Shown piece after piece: positions 2,634 through 63,458 of a stretch of DNA of 64,000 nt (its first letter is position 1; every line of letters begins with the position of its first letter). Made by a program: the position numbers and the translations under genes. Below the pieces are notes generated by a model, which saw only the letters and a list, made by a program, of their open reading frames with translations, was not told the DNA's origin and ran no database searches. Source of the stretch: Candidatus Moraniibacteriota bacterium (GTDB lineage: Bacteria > Patescibacteriota > Minisyncoccia > Moranbacterales > UBA9337); NCBI GenBank assembly GCA_028695135.1, contig JAQVJM010000004.1, positions 1,696 through 65,695 of the forward strand, given 5' to 3'.

Positions 2634-3105
2634 TAAATCCGAAATACGAAGTGCGAAATTCGAAACAAATCAAAATGACAGAAAACAAAAATACAAAAAA
2701 ATTTGATTTAGAGGATCGCACTTTTAAATTTGCTAAAAATGTCAGAGTATTTGTCAAAAAAATTCCCAAAAGCATTTCTAATTTTGAAGATGGGAAACAG
2801 CTGGTGCGTTCCTCCGGTTCTGTTGGTGCGAATTACATAGAGGCCAATGAATCTTTAGGTAAGAAAGATTTTCTGATGAGAATTAAAATTTCCAGAAAAG
2901 AGGCTAAAGAAAGTCGATTTTGGTTAAATTTAATAGATATTGGCAATGAGAAAGAATTGTAAAAGGAAAGAAATGATCTTGCCAATGAAGCGACAGAACT
3001 AATGATGATATTCGGACCCATTATTAGAAAATCAGAATAAGTTTAGAATTTTAATTTTTAGTTATTATTTCGGATTTCGAGTTTCGAATTTCGTATTTAA
3101 GACTT
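2634..3105. mobile_element. small cargo element: four-helix-bundle (23S rRNA intervening-sequence family) gene flanked by ~30-bp imperfect terminal inverted repeats built from CGAAAT(A/T)CGAA units
   Basis: left end CCGAAATACGAAGTGCGAAATTCGAAAC (2636-2663); right end TTTCGGATTTCGAGTTTCGAATTTCGTATTT (3063-3093) is its approximate reverse complement. Confidence 0.55.
2651..2962 (+). CDS. four-helix-bundle protein (23S rRNA IVS-associated protein family)
   Basis: family-typical segments EDRTFKFAKNV..KIPK, GANYIEANE, SRKEAKESRFWLNLI; 103 aa. Confidence 0.75.
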   Translation: MRNSKQIKMTENKNTKKFDLEDRTFKFAKNVRVFVKKIPKSISNFEDGKQLVRSSGSVGANYIEANESLGKKDFLMRIKISRKEAKESRFWLNLIDIGNEKEL

Positions 3106-4419: not shown

Positions 4420-4860
4420 ATGCAGTTCAAACGGCCGGAAAATACGGATAAATATTATTGGACCCGTCACAGTATCGGGAAGATGATGCAATACGGACTG
4501 AGCGCCCAGAGAGTGATCAGGGTTATCAGAAGTTATACAAGGATAGAGGAGGGCATAGCGGAAAACACGATTGCGGTGATGCAGCCGACTTCCACCCGCA
4601 GGGACAAGGATGGAGAGCTTAAGTGGAACCAGGAGATATGGGTGATGTATCAGCTCCGACGCAAGGTCGGAGCAAATTCCAAAAAACAAATTCCAAATTC
4701 CAAACAAATCTCAAAATCAAAATTCAAAAATCGAAAAACAATTCCAAATTCTGCGAATGGAAAAATTCGCATCATCAGCGCTTGGAAGTTTCCGGGAATG
4801 AGTCCGAAAAGCAATCCGATTCCCAGGGAAATATTGGAGGAGATTGAGGATGTATTATAA
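4420..4860 (+). CDS. DUF4258-like putative toxin-domain protein with an in-frame AT-rich repeat insertion (codons ~85-120)
   Basis: N-terminal TRHSIGKMMQYGLSAQRVIRVI resembles the T-x-H-[AS]-x-x-R-M-x-x-x-G-[IL]-S-x-x-x-V signature of DUF4258; the repeat segment translates as NSKKQIPNSKQISKSKFKNRKTIPNS. Confidence 0.45.
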   Translation: MQFKRPENTDKYYWTRHSIGKMMQYGLSAQRVIRVIRSYTRIEEGIAENTIAVMQPTSTRRDKDGELKWNQEIWVMYQLRRKVGANSKKQIPNSKQISKSKFKNRKTIPNSANGKIRIISAWKFPGMSPKSNPIPREILEEIEDVL

Positions 4861-12329: not shown

Positions 12330-12357
12330 TAAAAAACACCCCTTTCCCAGCCGGGAT
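12330..12357 (-). terminator. rho-independent terminator on the minus strand (CACCCCTT-loop-AAGGGGTG + T-run); member of the GC-rich palindrome family
   Basis: 8-bp GC stem; on the minus strand it is followed by TTTTTT. Confidence 0.6.
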
Positions 12358-12385
12358 AAGGGGTGGCTACTCTGCAAAGCCGATA

Positions 12386-12745: not shown

Positions 12746-12773
12746 ATTATAAAGCATTTTGCATTTTGCATCT
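12746..12773 (+). repeat. heptanucleotide tandem repeat (GCATTTT)x4 in the typA 5' leader
   Basis: GCATTTTGCATTTTGCATCTTGCATTTT, 20 nt before the GTG start. Confidence 0.7.
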
Positions 12774-12792
12774 TGCATTTTAAATTTTCAAC

Positions 12793-14577: not shown

Positions 14578-14617
14578 AACTTCAAATAATATTTTAAATC
14601 AGAGCCTTCTGTTTTTG

Positions 14618-14750
14618 AGTTGATAATCTACGGACGTAAGTACGAACGTACTTACGTCCGTAATTACGTCATTAAAAAAGAGACGTCCGACGTATGCAGA
14701 CGTCGGACGTCTGTGAGAATCTGTGAGAAAAATAGAGACAAGGCATGCCT
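14618..14750. repeat. cluster of three perfect palindromes (16-bp, 12-bp and 12-bp stems) between the convergent typA and phosphohexomutase genes
   Basis: GGACGTAAGTACG-AA-CGTACTTACGTCC; GACGTCCGACGT-ATGCAG-ACGTCGGACGTC; AGAGACAAGGCA|TGCCTTGTCTCT (the last is a minus-strand terminator with a T-run); the first has a relative at 30078. Confidence 0.6.
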
Positions 14751-14793
14751 TGTCTCTATAAATGTTAAGATCTGATTTTTCGACTAATTTTTT

Positions 14794-16149: not shown

Positions 16150-16274
16150 ATTGAGCTGAGTTAAAAATTAAAAATTCAAATTTCAAAATTATAGTTTAAA
16201 TAATTTTCAAATTAAAATTAATCTTGTATTTATATTTTATAACGCATCTGATTTATTTCCAAACTTTTTTAAAA

Positions 16275-16305
16275 CCCCTTCCAACGATTTCGCCGGAAGG
16301 GGCAG
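16275..16305 (-). terminator. minus-strand rho-independent terminator (CCCCTTCC-loop-GGAAGGGG + T-run); GC-rich palindrome family
   Basis: 8-bp stem and T-run immediately after the stop of the 16321-16539 ORF. Confidence 0.55.
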
Positions 16306-16320
16306 GGATAGGGCAGGGAG

Positions 16321-16808: not shown

Positions 16809-18908
16809 ATGAAAAACGATTTAAAAAGCTTATTTGATCCGAAATCGATCGCTGTTGTCGGGGCGAGCGAAACGGAGGGGAAAATAGGATTTATAATTGC
16901 AAAAAATATTTTAAAACTGGGATTTAAAGGCGAAGTTTTTTTAGTTAATCCCAAATACGATAAATTATTCGGGGAAAAATGCTATGCTTCTTTGAATGAT
17001 ATCAAGCCCTCACCCCTAACCCCTCTCCCGGAGGGAGAGGGGAATCCTGTTGTCGATCTGGCGATAATCGTCATTCCCTCAAAATTTGTAAACCAAACCA
17101 TCGGGGAGGCCAAAGGAAAAGTGAAGAACTTCACGATTATTTCCGCCGGATTTTCGGAAACCGGAAAGGAAGGTAAAAAGAGGGAAAGAGAGCTTTCAAC
17201 ACTGGCAAAAAAGAATAAGTTAAATATTTTGGGACCGAACTGCTTGGGATTCATATCTCCTAAATTGAAATTAAACGCGTCTTTCGCCGGAGGGCTTCCG
17301 GAGGAGGGCAATGTCGCTTTCGTTTCCCAGTCGGGAGCGCTGGCCGTGGCTGTGATGGATGTGGCCAAAAAAGAGGAGATAAAATTTTCCAAAATAATTT
17401 CCATCGGAAACAAGATGCAGATAGGAGAGGCCGAGCTTATGGATTATCTGGAAAACGACGAAGACACGAAAGTTATAGCGATGTATCTGGAGGGAATCAG
17501 CAATGGCAAAAAATTCATAAAAATCGCTCGAAGAGTTTCCCGAAAAAAGCCGATCGTTGTTTTGAAATCGGGCAAGAGCGAAAAATCCCAAAAGGCGATT
17601 TCCTCGCATACGGGAGCGCTGGCGGGAAGCGACGAGATAATGGATGCGGCTTTCCGCAAGGCTGGAATAATAAGAGCTAATAATTTGGAAGAATTTTTCG
17701 GTTTTATAAAATTAGCTTCCAATTTCGGATCGGTAACAAGCCCTAAGACAGCCATCATAACCAATGCCGGAGGCCCGGGAGTCCTGGCCACGGACAGTTT
17801 CCATGGAAAAAATTTGGAACTGGTCGAATTTTCGGAAAAAACGAAAAATAAATTCAGGGAATTTTTGCCGGAAGAGTCTTCGGTGGAAAATCCGATCGAT
17901 CTTCTCGGCGATGCGAGAGAAGACCGGTATCAAAAAGTTTTGGAAATTTTGGATCAAGAGGATATCGGAAACATAATCTGCCTTATGACGGCTCAGGATC
18001 AGACTCCTACCGAAAAAATCGCCGAGACCCTTATTGATTTTTCAAGAAAATCTTCAAAAAACATCATTCCCGTTTTTGTGGGCGGGGAAAAAATGGAGAA
18101 GACATTCAAGATTCTTAACGACAACGATATGCCCAATTTTTCTTTTCCCAAGGAAGCTGTGGACGCCCTGGATCATTTCTATAATTGGTACATGAATAAA
18201 AGAAACGATCGGGAAAAAGAAATTCCGGATGAAAACGAAAGCAAAGAAGATATTTCCCGGATGATAGATAGCGTAAAGAAGAATAATAGAAGCGCGCTTC
18301 TCTTCGGCGAAGCGGCTGAAATCATGAAAAAATACAAAATTCCGGTCGTTGATTTTTCAAATATCGCGCTGAATGAAAAGATGCATTCCCGAATTGATTT
18401 TCCTGCTACGCTAAAAGTTGACAGCGACAAGGTTCTTCACAAGACTGATAAGCAGGGGCTCGTTCTGAATATCAAAAACATGGACGAGCTGGAGGAAACG
18501 ATCGGGAAAATGAGGAAAAATTTTCCCAAAGAAAATCTGATAATACAGCCGATGATAAAATATGAATCGGAAATAATTCTGGGAATGAAAAGAGATCCGA
18601 TTTTCGGACCGGTGATAGTTTACGGTCTGGGAGGAATCTATACCGAAGTTTTTAAGCTGGTTGATTTTTTGATTCTTCCGCTTTCCAAAAATGAGATAAA
18701 AAGAAGCCTCGAAAAAAGCAAAATCGGATTTTTGTTCAAAGAGACCCGAGGAAAGAAAATGGCGAATATCGATGAAATGGCCGGACTGATTTTCAATTTT
18801 TCCCGTCTGGCCAGAGATCAGAAAGATATAAAAGAAATTGATATCAATCCGCTTCTGATAGATAAAAAAGGAAAGATTTTGGCGGTGGATGTGAAAATAA
18901 TTTTATAA
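16809..18908 (+). CDS. acetate--CoA ligase (ADP-forming), fused alpha/beta (NDP-forming acyl-CoA synthetase)
   Basis: CoA-binding N-terminus (SIAVVGAS), succinyl-CoA-synthetase-like flavodoxin domain, His-loop SSHTGALAG, C-terminal ATP-grasp; 699 aa. Confidence 0.85.
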   Translation: MKNDLKSLFDPKSIAVVGASETEGKIGFIIAKNILKLGFKGEVFLVNPKYDKLFGEKCYASLNDIKPSPLTPLPEGEGNPVVDLAIIVIPSKFVNQTIGEAKGKVKNFTIISAGFSETGKEGKKRERELSTLAKKNKLNILGPNCLGFISPKLKLNASFAGGLPEEGNVAFVSQSGALAVAVMDVAKKEEIKFSKIISIGNKMQIGEAELMDYLENDEDTKVIAMYLEGISNGKKFIKIARRVSRKKPIVVLKSGKSEKSQKAISSHTGALAGSDEIMDAAFRKAGIIRANNLEEFFGFIKLASNFGSVTSPKTAIITNAGGPGVLATDSFHGKNLELVEFSEKTKNKFREFLPEESSVENPIDLLGDAREDRYQKVLEILDQEDIGNIICLMTAQDQTPTEKIAETLIDFSRKSSKNIIPVFVGGEKMEKTFKILNDNDMPNFSFPKEAVDALDHFYNWYMNKRNDREKEIPDENESKEDISRMIDSVKKNNRSALLFGEAAEIMKKYKIPVVDFSNIALNEKMHSRIDFPATLKVDSDKVLHKTDKQGLVLNIKNMDELEETIGKMRKNFPKENLIIQPMIKYESEIILGMKRDPIFGPVIVYGLGGIYTEVFKLVDFLILPLSKNEIKRSLEKSKIGFLFKETRGKKMANIDEMAGLIFNFSRLARDQKDIKEIDINPLLIDKKGKILAVDVKIIL
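17005..17050 (+). repeat. GC-rich palindromic element inserted in frame in the ACS gene (CCCCTCTCCC-GGA-GGGAGAGGGG)
   Basis: 23-nt perfect palindrome at 17020-17042, translated as PSPLTPLPEGEGNP between conserved blocks. Confidence 0.7.
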
Positions 18909-42565: not shown

Positions 42566-43483
42566 TCATATCGTTATTTTACAAACCCTTCTTTTTCCGG
42601 CCAGGTCTTTGTAAAATTTGACCTTGGCTTTCGGAAAATAATTTTTTATGATTTTTTCGAGCTTATTTTTTTGTTCGGGAGAAATTTCAAAGAAAATCGC
42701 AAATCGCAAATCGCAAATCGCAAATCTTTCAGATATCTGCTTCAGCAATTTTTCATAGTGAGCGAGGCCGTAATTTTCAGAATAAAGCGAGGATCCCGGT
42801 TCGTATTTACTTACATCTTTCGGGGAAGAAGCATATATTTTTTTTGAGAGATAAGGAAGATTGGCGGCGATGATTAGCTTATCGAGCTTTAGCTTCGTCA
42901 GCTTCTCAGTTAGCGGCGAAAGGAGACTGCCATGAATGAATTTTATGTTTCGTGCGACATTATGTCTTTTGGAATTTTTTCTAGCTATTTTTAAAGCCAT
43001 TCTCGAAACATCGATTCCGTAAAGCTCATGATTATTATTTTTTGATTCCAATCGCTTTGCGATTGAGACAATGATATTCCCGCTTCCGGTACCTATGTCA
43101 CAAATCGCGTATCGCGTATCGCTCAACTTTTTATTTTTCTTAGTTATCCCAGTATTTTCTTGTCCCTTGTCGCTTGTCGCTTGCTTCAGAACGAGATCCA
43201 CGATCAATTCCGTTTCCGGCCGGGGAATGAGCGTGTGCTTGTTGACCTCAAAATCCAACCCATAAAATTCTTTGTGTCCCGTTATATATGCGATCGGCTC
43301 GTGTTTCATCCTTCTTTTTAAAAATGATCCAAGTTTTGCGTTTTGCGTTTTGCGAATCTCGTATTCAGGATGCGATAAAACAAACTCCCGCGGTTTTTTA
43401 ATCGCATGAGAAATCAAAATCTCCAGGTCTAGTGGAGATAATTTTTCATAATATTTTTTTAAAATGTCGGATATTCTGCTCAT
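42566..43483 (-). CDS. prmC: release-factor glutamine N5-methyltransferase PrmC (HemK); carries three heptamer microsatellites in frame
   Basis: SAM motif DIGTGSGNI, catalytic NLPY (NPPY variant); immediately downstream of prfA on the same strand. Confidence 0.8.
   Translation of the reverse strand: MSRISDILKKYYEKLSPLDLEILISHAIKKPREFVLSHPEYEIRKTQNAKLGSFLKRRMKHEPIAYITGHKEFYGLDFEVNKHTLIPRPETELIVDLVLKQATSDKGQENTGITKKNKKLSDTRYAICDIGTGSGNIIVSIAKRLESKNNNHELYGIDVSRMALKIARKNSKRHNVARNIKFIHGSLLSPLTEKLTKLKLDKLIIAANLPYLSKKIYASSPKDVSKYEPGSSLYSENYGLAHYEKLLKQISERFAICDLRFAIFFEISPEQKNKLEKIIKNYFPKAKVKFYKDLAGKRRVCKITI
42694..42726. repeat. (AAATCGC)x4.7 heptamer tandem repeat inside prmC; related tracts (ATCGCGT)x2.7 at 43104-43122 and (TTTTGCG)x3 at 43334-43354
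   Basis: seen in sequence; all lie inside the prmC reading frame (peptides AICDLRFAIF, RYAICDIG, TQNAKLG). Confidence 0.8.
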
Positions 43484-51667: not shown

Positions 51668-51712
51668 TTGATTTTGGAAAATAGAGGCTTCTGTAGAGGC
51701 CTCTATAGAAGC
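51668..51712 (+). terminator. long palindromic stem-loop/terminator (AATAGAGGCTTCTGTAGAGGCCTCTATAGAAGCCTCTATT)
   Basis: 40-nt near-perfect palindrome after the yraN stop. Confidence 0.55.
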
Positions 51713-51795
51713 CTCTATTGACTTTCCGGCTTTCGAGATGTATATTTGCAAGTCAACGAGGATAGTTTTTTAAAATTTTTTTAAGGAGGGCGCTG

Positions 51796-55071: not shown

Positions 55072-55920
55072 ATGTTTGATTCACACGCTCATGTAAATTT
55101 CAAGGCCTTTAAAGATGATGGAGACGATGTTATAAAGAGGTCTTTAGAAAGCAATACCTTTATAATTAACGTTGGCTCACAGTACAGTACAAGCCAGCGA
55201 GCTGTTGAATATGCTCAAAAATTTGAAACTGGAGTGTGGGCGGCCGTAGGGATTCATCCGATTCATATAAAAGTTAAAAGTGAAAAGTTAAAAGTCGAAA
55301 GTTCCACCCCCTCTCAATCTCCCCCTCAGGGAAGGGGAGAAGTTTATTTTGAAGAATTTGATTATGGTGAATACAAAAAATTAGCGGAAAATGAAAAAGT
55401 AGTGGCGATTGGAGAAGTCGGGCTGGATTATCATCACTTTGACGGGGTAACCGGAATTTCAGAAATAAAAGAAAAACAGAAGAAAGTTTTAAAAGAATTT
55501 ATCAAGCTTGCTAATGAAGTGAAAAAACCAATGGCTATTCACTGCTGGGATGCTTATGATGATTTATTTGAAATACTAAGAAAGAATCCAATTGAAAAAA
55601 GAGGGGTGGTGCACAGTTTTATTGGAAGCTGGAAGACGGCGCAGAAATTTATTGAAATGGGATACAAAATCGGACTCAATGGAATAATCACCTATTCGGA
55701 ATCTTATGATAAGCTTATCCGAAATATTGACTTGAAAGATGTCTTGATCGAGACTGACTGTCCGTATCTCAATCCCAAACCTCTGCCAAGAGAAGATAGA
55801 AATGAACCGATAAATGTAAAGTATGTCGCCCGAAAAATTTCTGAAGTAAAAGGGATTGAGATTGATGAAGTTGAAAGAATTACAGCCGAAAATGCCAAAA
55901 AATTATTCAAAATAAGATGA
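55072..55920 (+). CDS. tatD: TatD-family metal-dependent DNase/hydrolase; carries an in-frame composite repeat insertion
   Basis: DSHAHVNF start, GIHP, EVGLDYH, HCW(D), HSF(IG) motifs. Confidence 0.85.
   Translation: MFDSHAHVNFKAFKDDGDDVIKRSLESNTFIINVGSQYSTSQRAVEYAQKFETGVWAAVGIHPIHIKVKSEKLKVESSTPSQSPPQGRGEVYFEEFDYGEYKKLAENEKVVAIGEVGLDYHHFDGVTGISEIKEKQKKVLKEFIKLANEVKKPMAIHCWDAYDDLFEILRKNPIEKRGVVHSFIGSWKTAQKFIEMGYKIGLNGIITYSESYDKLIRNIDLKDVLIETDCPYLNPKPLPREDRNEPINVKYVARKISEVKGIEIDEVERITAENAKKLFKIR
55265..55345 (+). repeat. in-frame composite insertion in tatD: AT-rich (AAAGTTAAAAGTGAAAAGTTAAAAGTCGAAAG) unit plus GC-rich palindrome (CTCCCCCTCAGGGAAGGGGAG)
   Basis: translated as KVKSEKLKVESSTPSQSPPQGRGE between conserved GIHP and EEFD blocks. 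Confidence 0.7.
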
Positions 55921-57066: not shown

Positions 57067-57140
57067 GATTGATCATTAACCATTGATCATTAATCAATGT
57101 CGAATGTCTAATGATTAATGCTCAATGTTTAATATTTAAT
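57067..57140. repeat. atp-operon spacer motif cluster (TGATCATTAA x2, CATTAATCAATG, CTAATGATTAATG, GCTCAATGTTTAAT)
   Basis: atpB-atpE spacer; palindromic ATTAATCATT-type units seen in sequence. Confidence 0.7.
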
Positions 57141-57514: not shown

Positions 57515-57605
57515 TAATGATTCTGATTAATAAAATTAATCATTAATCATTAACCATTGATCATTATCATTTTTCGCTTAGTGCTCAATGTTTAATGTTT
57601 AATAA
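57515..57605. repeat. atp-operon spacer motif cluster (AATTAATCATTAATCATTAACCATTGATCATTA; GTGCTCAATGTTTAATGTTTAAT)
   Basis: atpE-atpF spacer. Confidence 0.7.
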
Positions 57606-57611
57606 AAAACA

Positions 57612-58100
57612 ATGGAATTACTAGAAAATTTAGGGATAAATGGAAAAATATTATTGGCTCAGGTGGTGAACTTCTTCATTTTATTCTGGATCCTAAAAAA
57701 ATTTGCCTATAAGCCCGTTTTAAATTTACTGGAGGAAAGAAGCAAAAAAATTGAAAAAGGACTTAAAGATGCGGAGGTTGCCCGGAAGAAACTTGAAGAA
57801 ACCGAAATTGAAAGTAAAAAAATATTGTCTGATGCCAGAAAACATTCTCGAGAAATAATAAAAGAAGCTGAAATTCGGGCGGAAACCAGCAAAAGGGAAA
57901 TCGCCGAAGAGACAAAGCATAAAGTCGATAAGATGATTTCTGATGCGAAGAAAAAGATAGAAGAAGAGAAGGACAAGATGGTGGTGGAAGTCAAAAATGA
58001 GGTTGCCGACCTAGTGTCTCTGGCTACGGAAAAAGTGCTGGAAAAAAAAGCGGATAGCGAGGATGATAAAAAAATTATTAAAAAAGTTATTGAAAATTAA
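57612..58100 (+). CDS. atpF: F0F1 ATP synthase subunit b
   Basis: single N-terminal TM then a long charged helix; position in the operon. Confidence 0.85.
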   Translation: MELLENLGINGKILLAQVVNFFILFWILKKFAYKPVLNLLEERSKKIEKGLKDAEVARKKLEETEIESKKILSDARKHSREIIKEAEIRAETSKREIAEETKHKVDKMISDAKKKIEEEKDKMVVEVKNEVADLVSLATEKVLEKKADSEDDKKIIKKVIEN

Positions 58101-58144
58101 GCATTAAACATTAATCGTTGAGAATATCGATTAATGATCAATGA
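58101..58144. repeat. atp-operon spacer motif (GCATTAAACATTAATCGTTGAG = reverse complement of CTCAACGATTAATGTTTAATGC; CGATTAATGATCAATGATTGA)
   Basis: atpF-atpH spacer. Confidence 0.7.
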
Positions 58145-60130: not shown

Positions 60131-60226
60131 ATTAATTATTAAACATCAAACATTAATCATTGAGCATTAAATACCCATATTTTTATATCAATAATGATTG
60201 ATGATGAACAATGAATAGTTAACGAA
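60131..60226. repeat. atp-operon spacer motif cluster (AACATTAATCATTGAGCATTAAAT; CAATAATGATTGATGATGAACAATGAAT)
   Basis: atpA-atpG spacer. Confidence 0.7.
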
Positions 60227-61183: not shown

Positions 61184-61208
61184 GATTAAGAATTATGAAT
61201 TAAGAATT

Positions 61209-61790
61209 ATGAATGTGGAATTCGAAGCGACATTTAAAAATATCAGCAAAGATGAATTTAGAGATAAGCTAAGAGATTTAGGCGCTGAAATGGTTAAGGA
61301 AGAATTTTTGCAGAAAAGAAGCACATTCAATGTGCCAAGAGGTTGCAAGATTAATGAAAGCTGGCTAAGGGTTAGAGACGAAGTAGATAAGATAACTTTG
61401 ACATTCAAATCAGGCGGAAAGCAATCCGCCATAGAAGATCAAAAAGAGATAGAGCTTAAGGTTGATAATTATGAAGAAGCTAAAAAATTTTTGGAAGTGC
61501 TGGGTTGCAGAAAGAAATCTTATCAGGAGACAAAGAGAGAAATCTGGAAATTGGATGAAGTAGAAGTTATGATTGACGAATGGCCTTTTCTTGAACCTTT
61601 TGCGGAGATCGAAGGCAAAAATGAGGAAGAAGTAAAGAAAGCCAGCGAGAAATTGGGATTTGATTATAATGATGCAGTTTTTGGTCCGGTTAGCATACTA
61701 TATTCCGAAAAATACGGAGTGACTGAGAAATTTGTAAATAATGAAGTCAAAGAAATTTTGTTTAATGGCGATAATCCATTTATAAGATAA
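61209..61790 (+). CDS. CYTH-domain protein (class IV adenylyl cyclase / triphosphate tunnel metalloenzyme family) inserted in the atp operon
   Basis: EFEATFK N-terminal beta-strand with conserved Glu pair, ESWLRVRD, ITLTFK, EIELKV, EVMIDEWPFLEPFAEIEG; start taken at the second ATG of a 14-nt tandem duplication. Confidence 0.7.
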   Translation: MNVEFEATFKNISKDEFRDKLRDLGAEMVKEEFLQKRSTFNVPRGCKINESWLRVRDEVDKITLTFKSGGKQSAIEDQKEIELKVDNYEEAKKFLEVLGCRKKSYQETKREIWKLDEVEVMIDEWPFLEPFAEIEGKNEEEVKKASEKLGFDYNDAVFGPVSILYSEKYGVTEKFVNNEVKEILFNGDNPFIR

Positions 61791-61906: not shown

Positions 61907-63367
<1,461 letters not shown>

Positions 63368-63458
63368 TTCATCATTTATCATTAAATATTAATCAATCAT
63401 TATGATATGGCTTAATTGTACCCGATGTTTAATGATTAATAATCAATGATTAATTAAA
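63368..63458. repeat. atp-operon spacer motif cluster (ATTAATCAATCATT; CCCGATGTTTAATGATTAATAATCAATGATTAATT)
   Basis: atpD-atpC spacer. Confidence 0.7.

Follow-up and report, generated by a model that had tools for sequence, protein, structure and literature searches.

Interspersed repeats of the BoxC/PIT/TMECO class have been known since the 1990s and have been regarded as strictly intergenic elements of Proteobacteria and Cyanobacteria, with no established function or mode of spread; the BoxC and PIT literature is said to go back to work by Bachellier et al. in the 1990s and by Hoyne & Maher in 2000. Here, we describe a 39-nt element that, as judged from its sequence, is a 10-nt-stem variant of the Escherichia coli BoxC/PIT/TMECO repeat but resides in frame in the gene for a fused ADP-forming acetate--CoA ligase (ACS) of Candidatus Moraniibacteriota bacterium. 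The gene lies on a 64,000-nt stretch of contig JAQVJM010000004.1, referred to below, at its full length, as the window (GC content ~40%). We consider it highly probable that the ACS segment is one copy of this class, inserted at the DNA level and carried as a passenger rather than as an adaptation of the enzyme.

The TMECO repeat follows the consensus CCCTCNCCC-N3-6-GGGNGAGGG-N3-GGGNGAGGG, with either a TTA (type A) or a CCG (type B) loop; it is present in 23 copies in E. coli K-12, described as 'always intergenic', and in 3610 copies in 262 proteobacterial genomes, and it has no known function, is tied to local genome instability, and shows no association with mobile elements (PMC4666352). 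Its triplex was shown in vitro by circular dichroism and nuclear magnetic resonance (Holder et al. 2015, PMC4666352). For HPG1 of E. coli, GGGAGAGGGTTAGGGTGAGGG, a switch between G-quadruplex (G4), hairpin, and duplex has been proposed (Kaplan et al. 2016, PMC5100583).

In-frame palindromic repeats as such are also an established phenomenon, represented by the RPEs of Rickettsia, the GTAG/CGTC REPs, and the BRE of Bordetella. Yeast mitochondrial GC clusters and byp elements are further hairpin repeats in coding genes. As relayed in PMC3733652 and PMC3184786, RPEs (Ogata et al. 2000) are selfish palindromic repeats of ~100-150 bp, confined to Rickettsia, that lie in frame in conserved genes, where they are tolerated in loops, and that also occur between genes. 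The GTAG/CGTC REPs (Di Nocera et al. 2013, PMC3733652) and BRE (PMC3184786) are 20-40-nt hairpin repeats, some of which lie wholly inside open reading frames of known proteins, often in DNA-repair genes. Repeats of Methanomicrobiaceae and Deinococcus combine interspersed G-tracts with an adjacent complementary C-rich arm and hairpin/triplex-G4 switching (PMC8044849), and the mitochondrial palindromes of Nematomorpha are hairpin repeats in protein-coding genes that keep the frame (PMC6649704).

Architecture and family identity of the ACS element

The host gene (positions 16809-18908, plus strand) encodes 699 aa and was assigned from its open reading frame, its homologues, an AlphaFold2 model, and the Pfam domains CoA_binding_2, Succ_CoA_lig, Ligase_CoA_2, and ATP-grasp_5. 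A preliminary description had reported in it a perfect 23-nt palindrome of ~80% GC and had put the gene at ~35% GC. The palindrome proved real: CCCCTCTCCC-GGA-GGGAGAGGGG at 17020-17042 has a perfect 10-bp stem, a 3-nt loop, and 78% GC, it is the longest perfect GC-rich hairpin of the window, and no match appeared in 100 dinucleotide shuffles even with 3 mismatches allowed. It is no chance match. The gene itself measures 41% GC, higher than first stated, and the palindrome is only two thirds of the full repeat unit, a tripartite triplex/G4 motif of 39 nt (17007-17045, plus strand) that is delimited by codon alignment, a triplex scan, a conserved 3′ tail, and six identical assemblies.

On the plus strand, the element reads CCCTCACCCC-TAA-CCCCTCTCCC-GGA-GGGAGAGGGG-AAT and, by conceptual translation, encodes ACS residues 67-79 (peptide PSPLTPLPEGEGN). 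It begins with a third-strand box read directly from the sequence (CCCTCACCCC, 17007-17016), whose minus-strand reading GGGGTGAGGG is the mirror of G-stem 1, followed by a second loop, TAA (17017-17019), which is TTA on the G-strand, as in TMECO 'type A' (PMC4666352). A hairpin scan identified the C-arm CCCCTCTCCC (17020-17029) and the G-arm GGGAGAGGGG (17033-17042), the latter also recovered by RNA folding; between them lies the loop GGA (17030-17032), the hypervariable position of the family, with 30 loop variants among 133 copies compared. The same comparison defines the 3′ tail, AAT (17043-17045), as an instance of the conserved family consensus R-A-Y. The sense strand is C-rich, and the minus strand, which is the G-rich triplex/G4 strand, reads CCCCTCTCCC-TCC-GGGAGAGGGG-TTA-GGGGTGAGGG, its last block mirroring the middle one.

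Because the third box mirrors the purine arm, the G-rich strand, which is predicted to have perfect potential for an intrastrand triplex and also for a G-quadruplex, could fold back twice into the purine-motif triplex or adopt the quadruplex. All 10 of the 10 triplets of the box are of allowed types (G·G:C, A·A:T, and T·A:T, read from the sequence). A re-implementation of an ITxF-like intrastrand-triplex finder called the motif at 17007-17043 on the minus strand in a 10/3/10/3/10 register without mismatch, the C-stem, G-stem 1, and G-stem 2 blocks being related by Watson-Crick and reverse-Hoogsteen pairing; exactly two such motifs were found in the window, in ACS and in tatD, and none in 20 shuffles. 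The canonical quadruplex motif (G3+ N1-7)x4 occurs on the minus strand at 17007-17029 (GGGAGAGGGGTTAGGGGTGAGGG), as one of three in the window.

The element shares with TMECO the order of parts (C-stem, loop, G-stem 1, 3-nt TTA loop, and G-stem 2), the core words CCCTCTCCC, GGGAGAGGG, and GGGTGAGGG, the class II purine-motif triplex potential on the G strand, the TTA second loop of type A, a very highly conserved sequence in which the hairpin loop varies, and probably an interspersed character. Its minus strand corresponds to the HPG1/TMECO type A core GGGAGAGGG-TTA-GGGTGAGGG, from which it differs by an additional G both before and after the TTA. Owing to an additional G/C in each stem, which makes the stems 10 nt long instead of 9, the strict TMECO regular expression finds nothing in the window; it matches only if loop 2 may span 5 nt. 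Further differences concern the host, a patescibacterium as against 262 proteobacterial genomes, and the location: both copies in the window lie inside open reading frames with Pfam domains on both sides. Type B copies, with the peptide ...GRGAGGEG..., were found in frame in other genomes. HPG1 and HPG2 (GGGAGAGGGTTAGGGTGAGGG against the minus-strand GGGAGAGGGGTTAGGGGTGAGGG here, with its adjacent complementary C-tract) are all intergenic, near 3′ untranslated regions, and proposed to be regulatory (PMC5100583), whereas the present motif lies in coding sequence.

The likeness to RPEs that had been suggested earlier holds for behavior: the element stands in frame in a loop region of a conserved gene whose orthologues lack it, and its family has both intragenic and intergenic copies. 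It does not extend to membership, as the element is 39 nt long, belongs to Patescibacteria, and has another sequence, and the accounts of RPEs relayed in PMC3733652 and PMC3184786 describe no triplex architecture. Unlike REPs, the element has a third mirror-repeat box, carries no GTAG/CGTC tag (GTAG, CTAC, CGTC, and GACG are all absent within 20 nt on either side), and had no RAYT association among the gene calls covering ~74 kb of the contig; like intragenic REPs and BRE, it is found in a DNA-repair gene, in the UvrC of a Peribacteria genome. The repeats of PMC8044849 are archaeal or from Deinococcus, have their C-tract otherwise placed, and are reported in non-coding regions, and the mitochondrial palindromes and GC clusters are organellar, much longer or bypassed, and of other sequence. 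The repeat family is already known (PMC4666352, PMC5100583), and genomes of this type have no exclusive claim to it, near-identical copies occurring across many phyla. The open-access literature yielded no report of triplex motifs of the BoxC/PIT/TMECO type in coding sequence or in Patescibacteria, so that their presence in Patescibacteria and their in-frame residence in conserved enzymes appear undescribed; the earlier claim of novelty for this type of genome would stand for these two features, and falls for the family itself.

Since the element is common to many unrelated organisms from the same kinds of samples, an assembly or sequencing artifact, or a chimeric join with foreign DNA, might be suspected, but its probability is negligible. 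The exact ACS protein is encoded by at least 10 contigs held in JGI, ENA, Logan, and NCBI collections (including GCA_028718005.1 and a 185-kb JGI contig), neither flank of the element shows a break in the reading frame, and the element DNA and its coding context are identical in six independent assemblies from these four sources, with contigs of up to 185 kb; an assembly artifact is therefore excluded.

The structural potential raises the question of whether a regulatory nucleic-acid structure is selected at this site, either as an mRNA pause or attenuator hairpin or as a template-strand G4/triplex switch tuning ACS expression or replication. The RNA hairpin is stable (-21.2 kcal/mol by ViennaRNA, which does not model triplexes), the minus strand provides one of only three G4 motifs of the window, and a G4-hairpin-duplex switch has been proposed for the E. 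coli relatives (Kaplan et al., PMC5100583). We nevertheless regard this explanation as distinctly unlikely. The folding z-score against shuffles is only -1.5, the hairpin is followed by AAUCCUGUUGUCG rather than by a U-run, and it is absent from the terminator scan. In the account of Hoyne & Maher 2002 given in PMC4666352, E. coli PIT elements had neither promoter nor terminator activity and no in vivo effect. Moreover, genes with no relation to one another carry the element, which occurs in them in either orientation and uses each of the four open frames; this counts against a gene-specific role.

The insertion in acetate--CoA ligase

In an alignment of the 120 best ACS homologues including the query, the segment PSPLTPLPEGEGN is present only in the query, between ...SLNDIK and (P)VVDLAII, and is lacking from 119 of 119 other sequences; it is also absent from the solved homologues 2CSU, 8WZU, and 4XYL. 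Going by the names given to its homologues, the organism belongs to Patescibacteria, among Candidatus Moranbacteria. The nearest relatives, P0002 and P0004, show 74-76% identity and the same gene order (PGM, a small open reading frame, ACS, and RecJ). In a codon alignment with these syntenic orthologues (loci L127 and L128), the query is longer by exactly 39 nt, or 13 codons, reading GAT ATC AAG, the 39 nt, and CCT GTT GTC GAT, against GAT ATT AAA AAA GAA ATC GAT in P0004. The R-A-Y tail brings the repeat unit to 39 nt, so that it matches the 13-codon insertion exactly. A frame-preserving insertion between conserved blocks of the CoA-binding domain, as initially proposed, is supported, and alignment of orthologues identifies the ACS and TatD segments as lineage-specific and located in variable loops rather than ancestral.

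An AlphaFold2 model of the enzyme with the insert, built on 76 sequences (predicted local distance difference test score, pLDDT, 88.9; predicted template modeling score, pTM, 0.87), places the segment in a low-confidence coil: residues 65-81 connect helix 62-64 with strand 84-87, and the mean pLDDT of residues 71-80 is 56. In the Rossmann-type CoA-binding subdomain, the insert comes before strand beta-4 (VDLAIIVIP). Because ligands in Rossmann-type folds bind at the C-terminal ends of the strands, the insert loop would lie on the side of the sheet that faces away from the CoA site. It is probably exposed at the surface and would be neutral for the enzyme.

That the segment arose in place, as an ancestral or convergent low-complexity Pro/Gly linker whose palindrome formed by local slippage or template switching, is scarcely credible. 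The site is a variable loop, and a Moranbacteria homologue (P0118) carries a different short insert, KPALSAG, at the same place; yet all 119 homologues lack the present segment, at least six unrelated genomes share one and the same 36-mer down to its GGA loop, and 33 fixed bases recur in at least 120 genomic stretches, which is impossible by convergence of protein linkers. The mirror symmetry of the third box is likewise not a product of template switching, and this alternative is effectively refuted.

The most probable account is therefore insertion of a copy, which would have taken place in the ACS gene of a Moranbacteria-like lineage after its split from the nearest sequenced relatives. The inserted unit would have comprised the 10-bp GC hairpin, the third 10-nt box mirroring the purine arm, and the 3-nt tail. 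Its persistence may be explained by a length equal to 13 codons, by a landing frame that is stop-free and yields a Pro/Gly-rich peptide, and by a landing site in the coil before strand beta-4 of the CoA-binding Rossmann subdomain.

Separately, other ACS and TatD homologues of Moranbacteria (P0118, P0115, P0083, P0122/P0216, P0204, P0161, and P0055) carry differing lineage-specific peptides of GC-rich appearance, such as SRLRGNDIK, WILAFAGMT, LDPRIREDD, PPRVDERSSSRVEAG, and PASTRGDLSTRGG. These peptides presumably resemble translations of other widespread palindromic repeats, which suggests that several repeat families may enter coding sequence in this clade.

Distribution, in-frame residence, and mode of spread

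The strict 10-nt-stem pattern, which consists of 33 fixed bases with a free hairpin loop (CCCTCACCCCTAACCCCTCTCCC-NNN-GGGAGAGGGG), was searched in GTDB species genomes and recovered at least 120 stretches from many phyla. Among the matches listed, hosts include many Anaerolineae/Chloroflexota, Kolteria novifilia and other Planctomycetota, Nostocaceae (Cyanobacteria), Beta- and Gammaproteobacteria, Myxococcota, Acidobacteria, Spirochaetota, Verrucomicrobia, and Margulisbacteria, together with four metagenome-assembled genomes of Patescibacteria (two Peribacteria, one Doudnabacteria, and one Saccharibacteria). A looser pattern, CCCTCACCC-N2-6-CCCTCTCCC-N3-10-GGGAGAGGG, was found in at least 120 IMG/VR contigs. 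Across the 133 copies compared, the positions following the stem are A/G at +1 (128/133), A at +2 (122/133), and C/T at +3 (101/133); neither a target-site duplication nor a conserved target was detected, the flanks sharing 0-1 nt in 128 of the 133.

Many copies lie in long stop-free frames, all four frames in which the element itself lacks a stop codon are used, and the ACS-type element was in frame in 10 of the 10 hosts checked with Pfam. Among these are UvrC of a Peribacteria genome (L130), with the same frame and the same peptide PSPLTPLPEGEG, TsaD of a Saccharibacteria genome (L175), with two copies, and Tgt of a Doudnabacteria genome. Further hosts are a HemN-like radical-SAM enzyme, GlyS, an amino-acid kinase (AA_kinase) in which the peptide is again PSPLTPLPEGEGN, an RlmD-like methyltransferase, an amidohydrolase, an FtsJ/TlyA-like methyltransferase, and an E2 acyltransferase (L201), which has four copies, of types A and B, in the linkers between its domains. 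When TsaD and Tgt are aligned with solved structures, gaps appear at the elements. A 63-aa concatenation of element peptides, searched against a set of 5.8 billion proteins, returned 7 candidates and was uninformative.

Some proteins carry several triplex-motif copies, of both subtypes and in both orientations (L175, L270, L130, L201, and L147); TsaD has been hit independently in two organisms, the Saccharibacteria genome and a low-GC one (L270); the E2 inter-domain linkers appear to be made largely of element copies; and a 1485-aa methylase-like open reading frame (L147) contains about ten.

When the count was limited to copies flanked on each side by at least 60 stop-free codons, open frames outnumbered the two stop-containing frames by 76 to 10 overall and by 39 to 2 in loci below 55% GC (binomial P=1.4e-5), an approximately ten-fold depletion of stop-containing frames in low-GC loci. 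This depletion speaks for intragenic copies being translated and subject to selective filtering, and against splicing or bypass; element copies are probably translated. The 60-codon proxy is unreliable at high GC (element length modulo 3 is not enriched in GC-rich viral contigs); the argument therefore rests on hosts verified with Pfam and on how open frames compare with stop-containing ones, and the intragenic share in low-GC loci is given only roughly, as about half, and not as a firm fraction.

The same counts bear on the possibility that the element is untranslated, being removed from the mRNA or bypassed by the ribosome in the manner of mitochondrial byp elements or T4 gene 60. A GC-rich hairpin in an AT-rich gene, with a length that is a multiple of three so that removal would keep the frame, fits this idea. 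Skipping would tolerate the stop-containing frames that are so strongly depleted, however, and neither a pair of take-off and landing codons nor a ribozyme was seen at the element, where Rfam, which at gathering thresholds detected only one tRNA in the window, also gave no match. Bypass or removal is accordingly very unlikely.

IS200/IS605 and RAYT single-strand 'peel and paste' elements leave no target-site duplication, and the element could in principle be a REP/MITE-type miniature transposon that depends on a tyrosine transposase of the RAYT/IS200-like kind, whether its gene lies elsewhere in the genome or the enzyme comes from a host or partner cell. The hairpin core, the conserved flanking nucleotides, the 3-nt tail, and the lack of target-site duplication are in keeping with such an origin, as is the in-frame residence of GTAG/CGTC REPs in genes (PMC3733652). 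We judge it to be unlikely, given that there is no GTAG/CGTC tag within 20 nt and no terminal inverted repeat, that the element is asymmetric (box, hairpin, and tail) and without target-site duplication, contrary to a MITE, and that TMECO shows no association with mobile elements (Holder et al., PMC4666352). Gene calls covering ~74 kb of the contig include no transposase near the element and no Y1 transposase.

Because target duplication, terminal inverted repeats, a GTAG/CGTC tag, and a nearby transposase are all lacking, we favor, as a conjecture, copying by a mechanism that would act in trans on the folded single strand, through a host or HUH-type enzyme or through repair or template switching. 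The near-identical stems with free loops across phyla suggest, again conjecturally, a machinery that reads structure in trans. A much broader proposition would be that triplex repeats (BoxC/PIT/TMECO and sister subfamilies) are cross-phylum mobile DNA that routinely colonizes coding sequence in frame and supplies Pro/Gly-rich loops and linkers to housekeeping enzymes in at least 10 phyla, including tiny-genome Patescibacteria, being copied by a structure-specific mechanism without an element-encoded or lineage-specific transposase, so that the near-identity of sequence across phyla would reflect the requirements of the machinery and not common descent. We put this forward tentatively and think it rather doubtful.

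For an old repeat without an assigned function, insertion events are now open to dissection: element-free orthologues give exact boundaries (39 nt, no target duplication, and an R-A-Y tail), and intragenic copies amount to a natural selection experiment in which survival is limited to translatable frames. Such insertions also show the family extending, with little change, to Patescibacteria and many other phyla, and they make its mode of movement directly testable. Copies add loops of 12-13 residues to conserved enzymes (ACS, UvrC, TsaD, Tgt, and GlyS), which can mislead alignments, domain boundaries, and structure models, and the recurrent 'PSPxxPLPxGEG / SPSPxGRGVRGEG' peptides in protein databases arise from them.

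The tatD motif and other repeats of the contig

The second triplex motif of the window lies in the gene for a TatD-family hydrolase of 282 aa (55072-55920, plus strand; assigned from its open reading frame, homologues, and Pfam). It spans 36 nt on the plus strand (55305-55340, with the hairpin at 55318-55340), reads CACCCCCTCT-CAA-TCTCCCCCTC-AGG-GAAGGGGAGA, and has the same 10/3/10/3/10 layout as in ACS with one Watson-Crick mismatch. The preliminary description had paired it with the ACS element as a sister copy; it does exist, in frame and in a variable loop, but the two differ in sequence, and the tatD motif belongs to a different (sister) subfamily defined by architecture. Across the TatD family this loop varies, and in the closest orthologues (71-74% identity) it is 14-15 residues shorter. 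A search with the tatD-type pattern in JGI metagenomes gave 18 matches on low-GC contigs, with the consensus right arm GAGGGGGAGA, from which the window copy deviates by a G>A change. The motif was in frame in 5 of the 5 hosts checked (a MiaB-MiaA linker, ComEC, a GT1 glycosyltransferase, a reverse transcriptase, and TsaD); viral contigs yielded no full tatD-type motif, only six bare hairpins without the third box. In our proposed history, the tatD motif would be an older, slightly decayed copy of its subfamily.

Directly 5′ of the motif, a repeat scan detected a heptamer tandem array (TAAAAGT x5.1, 55268-55303, plus strand), translated as KVKSEKLKVES. Since this translated array resembles arrays in the intergenic regions of this genome, the tatD loop looks like a captured piece of intergenic-type DNA.

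A third copy is intergenic and of the ACS type (CCCTCACCC-CAG-CCCTCTCCC-GAA-GGGAGAGGG); it lies on the same contig, ~9 kb past the window end (L255 19708-19745), so that the ~74 kb of contig covered comprise the two window motifs and, within the 10 kb that follow, a single copy of the ACS type. The claim that the family is both intragenic and intergenic here stands on this copy and not on the two terminators named originally. These hairpins, near 12330 (12337-12365) and at 16275-16302, had been taken as family members; on the minus strand they fold into stems with a U-run behind, they lie downstream of genes on that strand, and the triplex scan does not detect them even in its relaxed form, so they were rejected as ordinary intrinsic terminators. 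At 16275-16318, the terminator hairpin CCCCTTCC...GGAAGGGG overlaps a plus-strand canonical G-quadruplex motif, GGGGCAGGGATAGGGCAGGG. This combination of a C-arm and four G-tracts loosely resembles the archaeal 'G4 with adjacent C-tract' repeats, with no triplex motif in the scan, and may have at most a loose kinship to the triplex family.

Several observations weigh against the reading of the ACS segment as an inserted passenger copy. The closest relatives are merely 74-76% identical and provide no empty-site allele, so the timing and exact boundaries of the event rest on parsimony. A scan of JGI metagenomes for an empty site had no matches, and this is uninformative, as the collection also did not return this organism's own tatD copy. 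Only three copies occur in ~74 kb, and the ACS and tatD copies are dissimilar, so recent activity is not shown; the variable length of the tatD loop and its heptamer array make a 'simple insertion' less clean there. Translation of the segment and an unaffected enzyme are inferred rather than directly evidenced, and even for the E. coli TMECO the evidence for a triplex is confined to in vitro work (PMC4666352).

Near the intergenic copy, an 11-bp hairpin, CACCTTCTCCC-TTT-GGGAGAAGGTG (L255 19617-19660), lies just past a stop codon, ~50 nt before the element. In many other genomes, similar 'CTCCCTTCTCCC' hairpins come after the element, which thus often appears to be a module within a composite repeat.

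Many intergenic-looking regions of the window are filled by short tandem arrays of 7-nt period, in which the unit varies per array (CAAAATC, AAATACG, GCATTTT, AAATCGC, ATTAATC, and others) and the period remains constant. The repeat scan placed them at 76-140, 174-195, 2635-2665, 3067-3098, 4673-4741, 12754-12781, 16161-16221, 42694-42726, 43104-43354, 57068-57096, 57535-57571, 58096-58114, 60138-60171, 61185-61214, and 63360-63383. A cluster of long palindromes and terminator-like hairpins is found downstream of a BipA-like gene (14608-14759), and a 40-nt near-perfect palindrome, AATAGAGGCTTCTGTAGAGG/CCTCTATAGAAGCCTCTATT, which is also a repeat of 12-nt period, at 51680-51719. Beyond the window on the same contig (L255 14709-17774), a leucyl-tRNA synthetase-like gene of 1021 aa has a NUDIX Pfam match between its tRNA-synt_1 segments, which may represent a domain insertion.

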